Assembly: GCA_013287645.1 (NCBI GenBank)
Contig: JABDDJ010000003.1
Coordinates: forward strand, 509-64,508
DNA from: Chlamydiota bacterium
GTDB lineage: Bacteria > Chlamydiota > Chlamydiia > Chlamydiales > JABDDJ01
Direction: 5' to 3'
DNA length: 64,000 nucleotides
The notes under the pieces were generated by a model that worked only from the letters and a program-made list of their open reading frames with translations, did no database searches and was not told the DNA's origin. Position 1 is the stretch's first letter; each line of letters begins with the position of its first letter. Made by a program: the position numbers and the translations under genes. This document shows positions 35,849 through 37,261 of the stretch, in pieces.

Positions 35849-37261
35849 CTATTCAAATACATATATATCTAAAATTGATACTAGTTTATTTATTTCATGC
35901 TCTTGTTCAAAATAATTTTTTGAAAACCGTTCGTTTGAGAATAATAACTCCTCAACAGGTGTCATAGCTAAAGACTTGAGTTCTTTAAAGGGAATGCACA
36001 TCGCAAATGATGGCTCAAATAGGTAAAGCTGAATCCACGGTAGACCCTTTTTTGTAAAATCTTGAGCTAATGTAAAATAGCGATAGCCTTCAGGAATTTG
36101 CGATCGATTAACCAAAACGGTTGTTGCTGTTGAATTAATATTCAAATTCATGAGATCCAATCTACTAAATCCACCGTCTTTTTTTGTCAAACGGGTCACA
36201 GTCACGTGATTATACTTGGTAATGTCAAACAAATTTGATAGGATTTGAATTTCTTCTTGACAAAACTCTTGAGGGATTCCACAAATATCCACATTTTCTC
36301 GGTCTTGATATTTATAAACCCAAAAAGGGGTTGTCTCTGGAAAATGATCAGGTAGCGATTTAAGTAAAATGCCATTGTCATAAATCCGAGTTAGTGTATG
36401 GTTAATGGTTTGAGTTTTTCTTCTATTCAAAGAAAGTTCTTGGGCGTTTGCACGGACCTGATCCATCTCGGCTTTTAAAACAACGCCTCTAAAATTTGTG
36501 CTTATTCTTTTCCCTTTTGGAGAACCGGAAGTTAGCGTACCACTAAAATCCATTGGTGGGATGCCTGTATGGTAAGGCAAAGTGATATGTCCAGGATATT
36601 TTGGTGGAATGTTCGGTTCTGCATACTTTGCTGTTTCGGTGTAAAATGTTCCCACTACCTCACCAGGAAAGAAACAAATCAAGTAACGATCCCCGAAATC
36701 TCCATCTTGAACTACAGTAGCTGACAAAGTATTCTTCGCCATCTGCCAATCTACTAATGTCAAATCTTGAATCAATGTATATTCTGCTATTGGAGGTGTA
36801 AGTTTGCTCAAATACGCATATTCAGGAATGAATCGATCATGGTGAAATCTAAGGGCTTCCCAGTTTAGGTTTGCGTTAATATCTCGCCATAGGCCAATCA
36901 CGTGGATGTGGAAATATTTTTCCAGAATTCTATGTACATGGTCAAAGTACTTGTGGAATATTAATGCTCCATTAGGGTCTTTACTTGCATCCTTAGCTAC
37001 CTGAGTTGTTAGCTCAAAGGTTTTTGAAGGAGAATCTGCAACTGACATGCCATATGAAAGATAATGGCCCGCATCTTCGGCAACTTGTCGAGCAATAGCA
37101 TCTTTTTCAGGTGTCATGTAAAAATACAATTCGCAGTCGCCAATTTGAACCATATGGTACCCTTCGGAACCCAACCTTCCAGGTAATAGACATGGTTCAT
37201 GTTCATTTGCGATACAAAGACAGGTCTTAAGTACGAGTAAAAAAATGAAACCCTTTTTCAT
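35849..37261 (-). CDS. Secreted protein of unknown family, paralog 3 of 3; first gene of the minus-strand biosynthetic operon
   Basis: LLPGRLG, YFYMTPEK, QDLTLVDWQMAKNTLSAT, GSPKGKRISTNFRGVV, KKDGGFSRL, KGLPWIQLY, MTPVEE. Its stop lies 9 nt from the deiminase start on the same strand. Confidence 0.7.
   Translation of the reverse strand: MKKGFIFLLVLKTCLCIANEHEPCLLPGRLGSEGYHMVQIGDCELYFYMTPEKDAIARQVAEDAGHYLSYGMSVADSPSKTFELTTQVAKDASKDPNGALIFHKYFDHVHRILEKYFHIHVIGLWRDINANLNWEALRFHHDRFIPEYAYLSKLTPPIAEYTLIQDLTLVDWQMAKNTLSATVVQDGDFGDRYLICFFPGEVVGTFYTETAKYAEPNIPPKYPGHITLPYHTGIPPMDFSGTLTSGSPKGKRISTNFRGVVLKAEMDQVRANAQELSLNRRKTQTINHTLTRIYDNGILLKSLPDHFPETTPFWVYKYQDRENVDICGIPQEFCQEEIQILSNLFDITKYNHVTVTRLTKKDGGFSRLDLMNLNINSTATTVLVNRSQIPEGYRYFTLAQDFTKKGLPWIQLYLFEPSFAMCIPFKELKSLAMTPVEELLFSNERFSKNYFEQEHEINKLVSILDIYVFE

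Follow-up and report, generated by a model that had tools for sequence, protein, structure and literature searches.

The window analysed here is a stretch of 64,000 nucleotides from a Chlamydiota bacterium (GenBank assembly GCA_013287645.1, contig JABDDJ010000003.1, positions 509 to 64,508 of the forward strand), and coordinates given without a locus label refer to it. It is a large region of nonribosomal peptide synthetase (NRPS)/polyketide synthase (PKS) type, encoding two ketosynthase-acyl carrier protein (KS-ACP) proteins, a 2611-aa NRPS, an MbtH-like protein, a type II thioesterase and a protein of beta-lactamase fold. Three paralogous genes of a family that has no Pfam domain lie in it. 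The third of them, hereafter copy 3, is the subject of this analysis, and may encode a tailoring oxygenase of the Fe(II)/2-oxoglutarate (2OG) type. It stands at the head of a run of five genes on the same strand:

35849-37261, minus strand: copy 3 of the family, 470 aa, ATG start, first gene of the five-gene co-directional run.
34541-35839, minus strand: PAD_porph/agmatine-deiminase-like enzyme (hereafter PAD), 432 aa, after a 9-nt gap from copy 3.
33805-34554, minus strand: Sfp/HetI-type phosphopantetheinyl transferase (PPTase), 249 aa, overlapping the PAD gene by 14 nt (Pfam and NCBIfam).
32785-33792, minus strand: SbnA-like pyridoxal phosphate (PLP) enzyme of the 2,3-diaminopropionate-synthase type, 335 aa, after a 12-nt gap from the PPTase gene (Pfam and NCBIfam).
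30050-32788, minus strand: fusion of an ATP-grasp domain (L-amino-acid-ligase-like) with an argininosuccinate-lyase-fold domain (Lyase_1/ASL), 912 aa, overlapping the PLP-enzyme gene by 4 nt, last of the run.
37262-37791, no strand: divergent intergenic region of 530 nt, containing a Shine-Dalgarno (SD) sequence and a weak sigma-70-like match.
37265-37275, minus strand: SD sequence GAAGGAAGGAG, 3 nt ahead of the copy 3 ATG, a strong ribosome-binding site.
37792-38355, plus strand: GNAT acetyltransferase, divergent upstream neighbour of copy 3 and candidate self-resistance gene.

Copy 3 is taken as the first gene of the run because its upstream neighbour, the GNAT gene, is divergent and 530 nt away. 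In gene order, the junctions in the list of open reading frames (ORFs) measure +9, -14, +12 and -4 nt, and none of them has space for a terminator. An earlier note on this DNA had described a third paralog of 470 aa lying 9 nt upstream of a deiminase gene, followed by a 14-nt overlap, a 12-nt gap and a 4-nt overlap, and had made it the leading gene of a tailoring operon. Coordinates, length and spacings were all reproduced, and copy 3 is indeed the first of five same-strand genes behind the divergent intergenic region. The layout of the run is operon-like: the genes lie on one strand, their junctions are short or overlap, an internal terminator is absent, and a single upstream region carries an SD sequence. 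Co-transcription of copy 3 through the ATP-grasp/ASL gene would be consistent with the data.

The sole promoter-like match in the intergenic region is a weak -35/-10 pair at 37347-37319. It carries little weight because promoter-like sites are rarer than in shuffled sequences: 21 were counted across the region, versus 32.4 +/- 5.8 in the shuffles, which is fewer than chance. Terminator-like matches on the minus strand all fell within coding sequence, and their number was not far above that in shuffles (11 versus 6.2 +/- 2.8). No Rfam family (one chance match, E = 0.42) and no meaningful repeats were detected in 37262-37791. Copy 3 could also be transcribed independently and merely neighbour the tailoring genes. 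Weak promoter-like matches, one within copy 3 (35965-35938) and one just within the PAD gene (35824-35797), would fit this, as would the GTG start of the PAD gene, which has no obvious SD sequence in the 9-nt gap. The deficit of promoter-like matches relative to chance, the four junctions, all of 12 nt or less or overlapping, and the adjacency of family and PAD genes in divergent genomes (below) speak against it, and we regard independent transcription as exceedingly improbable.

The enzymes encoded behind copy 3 could be assigned with varying precision. The PAD gene matched Pfam PF04371 with E = 6.6e-59 (200 bits versus a gathering cut-off of 25), and its product aligned over its full length to 6nib and 3h7c, with an intact catalytic-cysteine motif, GGGIHC, equivalent to GGNIHC of 6nib. 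This protein scored below the NCBIfam equivalog cut-off for true AguA, and free agmatine is therefore probably not its substrate. Also in NCBIfam, the SbnA-like PLP enzyme reached 187 bits with TIGR03945, under the equivalog cut-off of 350, and the ATP-grasp/ASL fusion 739.8 bits with NF002563, over the cut-off of 625. At the distal end of the run, the ATP-grasp/ASL gene (30050-32788, minus strand) converges with a thioesterase gene (29302-30063, plus strand), and their 3' ends share 14 nt (30050-30063), so that there is no space for terminators between the two converging operons.

The copy 3 protein itself, whose exact sequence is present in public collections (entry P0001), has no match in Pfam, NCBIfam or the sequences of the PDB. 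A search of 5.8 billion clustered proteins returned only 25 relatives, none of them named and none with a Pfam domain, and an exhaustive profile search of 1.84 billion protein representatives gave 65 family members. Among genome representatives, the hosts were Chlamydiota metagenome-assembled genomes (two of them labelled Verrucomicrobia), Candidatus Megaera venefica of the Rickettsiales, with a truncated copy on a 3-kb contig, Glycomyces and Saccharothrix. Literature searches retrieved no description of the family. Some members carry an N-terminal extension of ~290 aa (long forms) and others one of ~110 aa; neither has a Pfam match, so the extensions give no functional clue.

The two other copies in the window are adjacent to each other:

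10470-11939, minus strand: copy 1 of the family, 489 aa, keeping the whole putative catalytic set of six residues (see below).
11949-13418, minus strand: copy 2 of the family, 489 aa, starting with TTG and likewise keeping the whole six-residue set.

Pairwise, the three copies share 37-39% identity over their full length (BLASTP, E = 2e-101 to 3e-110), far beyond chance. In a neighbour-joining tree they fell into three separate subclades: that of copy 1 includes P0015 and P0026, that of copy 2 includes P0008 and P0031, and that of copy 3 holds all family members linked to a PAD gene. Since the copies belong to different subclades, they represent old, functionally differentiated subfamilies and not recent duplicates. 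Copy 3 is 19 aa shorter than copies 1 and 2, mostly through a 12-aa loop deletion after residue 94 that is common to its whole subclade, in agreement with the deficit of about 20 residues noted earlier. The companion statement, that copy 3 has the most diverged N-terminal third, holds only marginally (31% and 29% identity in the pairs with copy 3, versus 32% between copies 1 and 2), this third being the least conserved part in all three pairs. The divergence of copy 3 is more aptly taken as a sign that it belongs to a distinct, old subfamily. To have several paralogs in one cluster is the rule, also at loci from other genomes (labelled L): four in L020 (2852-8908), three each in L019 (139-3962) and L008 (13530-19409), and two in L002. 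Downstream of copies 1 and 2, an unannotated protein of 394 aa (9227-10411, minus strand) has one N-terminal transmembrane-like segment and no Pfam match. A 45% identical homolog is encoded in L021 (12022-13248), which makes this protein a second conserved unknown of this cluster type.

Wherever a locus from another genome offered flanking sequence beyond a few kb, the family gene was found inside a biosynthetic cluster (13 out of 13 cases). Clusters with NRPS and KS-ACP genes surround it in L002, L003, L005, L006, L007, L008, L013, L014, L020 and L021. Locus L019 carries PAD_porph, DUF6790, GNAT and a 721-aa class-III aminotransferase, with no synthetase within its 15 kb. In Glycomyces sp. 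L485 and Saccharothrix sp. S26 (L016 and L017, 9400-13400), the family gene is followed by a radical SAM enzyme and an ATP-grasp enzyme resembling D-Ala-D-Ala ligase (Ddl-like). The Glycomyces cluster continues with stand-alone thiolation-adenylation (T-A) and condensation (C) domains and an ABC transporter/exporter, and the same radical SAM, ATP-grasp and ABC-transporter neighbours are present in Saccharothrix. These actinobacterial loci are a different, small cluster type that uses the same family.

A PAD_porph gene directly follows the family gene in L005 (11-nt overlap), L006 (1-nt gap), L008 (8-nt overlap) and the window, and is found elsewhere in the same cluster in L019 and L021. The PAD link thus consists of adjacency in four genomes, the window included, and of a shared cluster in two more. 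Overlaps of 4 nt connect the family gene with tailoring genes in L003 and L006. Genes for DUF6790 and a class-III aminotransferase recur with the family in L002, L005, L006, L008, L019 and L021, and homologs of the window GNAT gene (37792-38355) occur in L005, L006 and L021. No other recognisable oxygenase was present among the called genes or scanned ORFs of the family-bearing clusters. The earlier note had argued that the family is tied to biosynthesis and is not a neighbour by chance. The 13 flanked loci, together with the recurrence of the family-PAD pair in L005, L006 and L008, bear this out; chance adjacency of copy 3 to the cluster was considered and rejected, as its context is conserved in other genomes. 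In L005 (17272-17970) and L006 (18087-18842), a gene for an NpmA-like 16S rRNA methyltransferase (PF24675) was also seen beside the GNAT and ABC exporter genes. It hints that the product of these two clusters targets the small ribosomal subunit.

The structure of the copy 3 protein was predicted with AlphaFold2 (AF2) from the 25-sequence alignment. The full-length model (predicted local distance difference test, pLDDT, 86.5; predicted template modelling score, pTM, 0.86) consists of two beta-rich domains, and a model of residues 27-276 alone reached a pLDDT of 91.1. The two domains are encoded as follows:

36437-37183, minus strand: N-terminal jelly-roll (double-stranded beta-helix, DSBH) domain, residues 27-275, predicted to be catalytic (AF2 domain model and Foldseek).
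35852-36436, minus strand: C-terminal jelly-roll domain, residues 276-470 (AF2), with universally conserved K360, G364 and N385.

For the full-length model, the best PDB matches in Foldseek were human OGFOD1 (E = 8e-7, probability 1.0) and yeast Tpa1, both Fe(II)/2OG prolyl hydroxylases. They were followed by bicupins (canavalin, beta-conglycinin, gentisate/salicylate dioxygenase, KduI), a PiuC-like oxygenase, P3H1, LH3 and PHD2. The N-domain model gave as best matches the PiuC-like oxygenase 3dkq (E = 4e-5, template modelling (TM) score 0.45-0.47), Tpa1 (query-normalised TM score 0.45), NvfI, AlkB, FtmOx1 and OGFOD1. In a viral structure library, the matches were limited to generic jelly-roll capsids and a single phage Fe2OG protein. 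The C-domain is without the HxD...H pattern described below, and an hhalign comparison of the N- and C-domains, as a sign of internal duplication, was not significant. By itself, the fold evidence would indicate a jelly roll, with 2OG oxygenases as its nearest enzymes.

The residues expected of such an enzyme were located in the N-domain:

36836-36844, minus strand: codons of H140-H141-D142, in which H140 and D142 form an HxD, the putative first two ligands of a 2-His-1-carboxylate triad.
36569-36571, minus strand: codon of H231, putative distal histidine of the triad.
36488-36508, minus strand: codons of R252-I-S254...R258, an RxS-type motif and putative site for the C5-carboxylate of 2OG.

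These six residues (H140, D142, H231, R252, S254 and R258) are invariant in the 25 close members, with the exception of one that has K at position 252. All six are kept in 42 of 60 full-length members, whereas 16 of the 60 keep three or fewer and only two are intermediate. The triad alone (H140/D142/H231) is kept in 44 of 60, its loss being all-or-none. Other positions (D171, W172, R192, D238, K249, K360, N385) are at least 95% conserved across the 60 members. Because the six residues are kept or lost together while the other positions stay conserved, the pattern is that of an active site with pseudo-enzyme paralogs. Most of the long forms with the ~290-aa extension are among the degenerate members, as is one of the four L020 paralogs (P0045, L020 5906-7303); none of the three window copies has lost any of the six. 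The coexistence of active and degenerate paralogs in one cluster suggests that they form hetero-oligomers or that some serve as regulatory subunits. DSSP assignments of both AF2 models placed the HxD at strand II of the eight-strand DSBH core, H231 where strand VII starts, and R252, S254 and R258 on strand VIII; by our reading of the models, this strand order would be the canonical layout of a 2OG oxygenase.

N-terminal leaders were judged by a crude heuristic based on Kyte-Doolittle hydropathy. Two features of the window bear on the compartment in which copy 3 may act:

37205-37261, minus strand: signal-peptide-like leader of copy 3, residues 1-19 (MKKGFIFLLVLKTCLCIA then NE), with a best 10-aa window of 2.46 and two N-terminal lysines.
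27845-29305, plus strand: ClbP-like S12 peptidase (beta-lactamase fold) with a leader at its N-terminus and some three transmembrane segments at its C-terminus; relation to ClbP at E about 3e-13; an indication that the prodrug of this cluster is activated outside the cytoplasm.

Signal-peptide-like leaders were scored in 41 of 57 family members. Copies 1 to 3 of the window were positive, and so was the window PAD, whose N-terminus has the hydrophobic leader MNFQLLTIVCCFISCTNILYG. The 16 leaderless members include most of the actinobacterial-type forms with the ~110-aa extension and one chlamydial subclade; the Glycomyces and Saccharothrix members have no leader and a helical N-terminal extension of ~110 aa. 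Among the PADs, leaders were present in the window, L019 and L021. For copy 3 and PAD, action in the same compartment is plausible in this window and is not universal. The combination of a leader with C-terminal transmembrane segments in the peptidase is the architecture of ClbP and of periplasmic prodrug-activating peptidases (PMC9889268). Given this architecture, the cluster probably yields its product in the form of an N-acylated prodrug.

The predicted fold, the residue pattern and the cluster context together give an even chance to the family being a divergent Fe(II)/2OG-type tailoring oxygenase with pseudo-enzyme paralogs. Copy 3 would then perform a non-haem Fe(II)/2OG-type oxidative tailoring, probably a hydroxylation, of the peptide-polyketide produced by the surrounding NRPS/KS-ACP cluster. 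The 2-His-1-carboxylate motif of the N-domain would provide the putative metal site, and the RxS/R motif on the next strand the putative 2OG site. Because the copy 3 subfamily co-occurs with a PAD-type, guanidino-modifying enzyme, a guanidino- or ureido-bearing portion of the product is probably the shared target of both. The step would probably be extracytoplasmic, after export of the prodrug, because the three copies and the PAD have signal-peptide-like leaders and a ClbP-like periplasmic peptidase is encoded in the cluster. The analysis itself shows the gene order with its junctions, the paralogy, the rarity of the family, its link to biosynthetic clusters and to PAD, the predicted fold, and the joint retention or loss of the six residues. 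Dependence on metal and 2OG, as well as the reaction, the substrate, the export and the co-transcription, is what we infer from these data.

Several observations weigh against this interpretation. At the sequence level, no oxygenase family was found in Pfam at E <= 10 for any of the 25 members, only scattered unrelated weak matches; NCBIfam had no match for copy 3; and in the PDB sequences neither phmmer with copy 3 nor a profile search with the 25-member alignment gave anything at E = 10. An hhalign comparison of the N-domain profile with a YbiX/PiuC profile returned a probability of 0.3%, a weakly informative result given that the template was shallow (members at least 80% identical); the template alignment had been retrieved from the database with an E. 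coli YbiX sequence (99% match). The structural similarity is remote, with TM scores of 0.21-0.25 over the full length (rmsd ~16 A versus OGFOD1/Tpa1) and of at most 0.47 for the N-domain, for which picornavirus capsid jelly rolls score nearly as high as oxygenases. The putative ligands are assigned at the level of sequence and secondary structure, and the spacings from HxD to His (89 aa) and from His to Arg (21 aa) are longer than in most family prototypes. As to the compartment, the PADs of L005, L006 and L008 are leaderless though their partner family proteins have leaders, which argues against an obligate same-compartment pair. To our knowledge, an exported Fe(II)/2OG enzyme would be unusual in bacteria, and it would need both 2OG and Fe(II) outside the cytoplasm.

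Some of these observations would suit an exported, non-catalytic jelly-roll protein, acting in periplasmic binding, as a carrier, chaperone or immunity protein, or as a scaffold for PAD and maturation enzymes, with the His, Asp and Arg residues forming a ligand-binding site. The leaders in 41 of 57 members fit such a role, as do the presence of two to four paralogs per cluster and the near-equal scores of capsid and carbohydrate-binding-module jelly rolls. Moreover, the 16 of 60 members without the six-residue set still keep D171, R192, D238, K249, K360 and N385, which implies a function independent of the triad. We nevertheless consider a non-catalytic role rather unlikely: without metal and co-substrate chemistry, one can hardly account for an all-or-none HxD...H plus RxS set on the canonical strands of the DSBH, the gene is operonic with enzymes, and the actinobacterial members are leaderless.

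The bicupins among the full-length Foldseek matches raise another alternative, namely a metal-dependent cupin/DSBH enzyme that works without 2OG (an IPNS/ACCO-like oxidase, an isomerase, an epimerase or a lyase) on a guanidino or ureido moiety, together with PAD. The lack of a profile match to 2OG families and a possible scarcity of 2OG outside the cytoplasm would agree with it. The ligands, however, have the form HxD...H and not the cupin form GX5HXHX3-4E...H, and the RxS/R on the following strand, which is kept along with the triad, is a usual feature of 2OG or bicarbonate binding. As the best enzyme matches of the isolated N-domain are also all 2OG oxygenases, an enzyme of this kind is decidedly unlikely.

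The remainder of the window was inspected for indications of the product and of the genetic setting. A second co-directional block (49240-58628, plus strand) encodes DUF6790, a 727-aa class-III aminotransferase, an SxtJ-like protein, a carbamoyltransferase of the NodU/CmcH type and a dedicated carbamoyl-phosphate synthase pair, and a second NRPS is also present in the window. In the NRPS at 15835-23670 (plus strand), the second adenylation domain (residues ~1597-2483) has the specificity code DLYNLSLIWK, which we take to be a cysteine code. It is interrupted by an insert of ~470 aa with a YPSAGSLYP motif, typical of SagB/nitroreductase-type oxidase domains. A cysteine-type code with an oxidase-like insert suggests a thiazole-forming module. 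The other two NRPS adenylation codes, DVFEINA-CK and DVCQLGLIDK, were not recognised. The MbtH-like protein (26051-26716, plus strand) is fused to a C-terminal region matching Core binding factor beta (PF02312; 25.9 bits versus a cut-off of 25), an odd and possibly spurious match.

Dual self-resistance has been described for the aminopolyol peptide antibiotics paenilamicin and zwittermicin, with the acetyltransferases PamZ and ZmaR as precedent (PMC9054821). The GNAT and the ClbP-like peptidase of the window may resemble this arrangement, a resemblance to be treated as a lead, not a finding. Together with the NpmA-like methyltransferase of the relatives, these two genes hint at a ribosome-targeting, aminopolyol-like antibiotic.

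Part of a TraD/TrwB-type type IV coupling protein, the toxin-antitoxin pair AbiEi/AbiEii and several fragments of integrase cores (insertion sequences, IS) surround the first part of the cluster (29-8762 and 41168-41497). The cluster may be located on a conjugative island or plasmid; its source contig measures 84.9 kb. Between the two biosynthetic halves, a 1061-aa protein (45422-48607, plus strand) combines a STAND/NACHT-type NTPase with a C-terminal ubiquitin carboxyl-terminal hydrolase (UCH) domain and is a candidate eukaryote-like effector.

This setting bears on a further possibility, that the family consists of secreted effectors directed at the host, for example protein hydroxylases of the OGFOD1/Tpa1 kind acting on host proteins, which ride the same mobile island and have no part in making the metabolite. 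The closest structures are indeed ribosomal-protein prolyl hydroxylases, the hosts are mostly obligate intracellular Chlamydiota plus a Rickettsiales, and the window contains eukaryote-like genes (the STAND-UCH deubiquitinase) as well as type IV secretion system and IS remnants. Such a function is very unlikely in view of the consistent location in NRPS clusters and the translational coupling to tailoring genes (L003 and L006, and PAD in L005, L006 and L008). The family also occurs in small NRPS-like clusters of free-living actinomycetes, and a Sec leader targets the periplasm, not the host cell.

If the family does consist of Fe(II)/2OG oxygenases, a bolder version can be formulated. It would be an unrecognised family of exported oxygenases with dead paralogs, devoted to the oxidative tailoring, in the periplasm, of a prodrug-type peptide-polyketide antibiotic beside a ClbP-like peptidase and an exported PAD, in Chlamydiota and a few other lineages, with 2OG possibly derived from the host. 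We hold this version as tentative and, taken as a whole, doubtful. If true, NRPS/PKS tailoring would gain both a compartment and an enzyme family that are new to it, in obligate intracellular bacteria not known as natural-product producers. PMC9666466 notes that biosynthetic clusters exist in Chlamydiota and does not treat their accessory genes; these clusters are barely studied. What was a triple "hypothetical secreted protein" can now be put to the test as a hypothesis: an unannotated branch of the non-haem iron oxygenase fold that is specific to these clusters, with a defined site of six residues, pseudo-enzyme paralogs and a recurrent guanidino-modifying partner enzyme. Genome mining for this rare type of cluster could also use the family as a marker.

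Comparison with known systems separates what is new from what is not. The superfamily itself is known; the libraries and literature that were searched contain no description of the family, the bacterial tandem architecture, the strict association with clusters, the leader, or the sets of active and degenerate paralogs. OGFOD1, Tpa1 and Ofd1 (4nhy, 3mgu) have an N-terminal DSBH with HxD...H and a second DSBH without a metal site, an architecture that the family may share. They differ in that no sequence or profile similarity and no match to their Pfam models was detected, and the TM scores are no higher than 0.21-0.25. Moreover, these proteins are cytosolic or nuclear and hydroxylate ribosomal protein uS12, whereas the present family is bacterial, mostly leader-bearing, cluster-encoded and multi-paralog. 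The PKHD hydroxylases of the PiuC/YbiX type (PF13640; 3dkq) and the PHD2/P3H1/LH3 branch share with the family an HxD...H followed by an Arg on the next strand. Relative to PiuC/YbiX, the inserts that separate the ligands are longer in the family (89 aa and 21 aa), which also has an extra invariant GSxKGK loop, and the hhalign comparison was not significant.

For the proposed role, the nearest precedents are VioC, OrfP and MppO, Fe(II)/2OG tailoring oxygenases of NRPS pathways that act on arginine-derived units. These enzymes are TauD/clavaminate-synthase-like, single-domain and cytoplasmic, and use free or carrier-bound amino acids. The likeness would lie in the oxidative tailoring of a basic or guanidino unit, in a cluster that also makes diaminopropionate and carbamoyl groups; no homology to the family was detected.

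Maturation of an NRPS product in the periplasm is well illustrated by the pyoverdine enzymes PvdQ, PvdP, PvdO and PvdN. We know of no periplasmic NRPS maturation enzyme that is of the DSBH/2OG type or a PAD-type deiminase. If the export prediction holds, oxidative chemistry would be added to the short list of periplasmic maturation steps of non-ribosomal peptides. The prodrug peptidases ClbP, XcnG and PamJ likewise act in the periplasmic maturation of NRPS products (PMC9889268, PMC9054821). The window cluster resembles both kinds of system in encoding a leader-bearing ClbP-like peptidase together with further leader-bearing enzymes, the PAD and the three copies, whose predicted export suggests that the product is tailored after it has left the cytoplasm.

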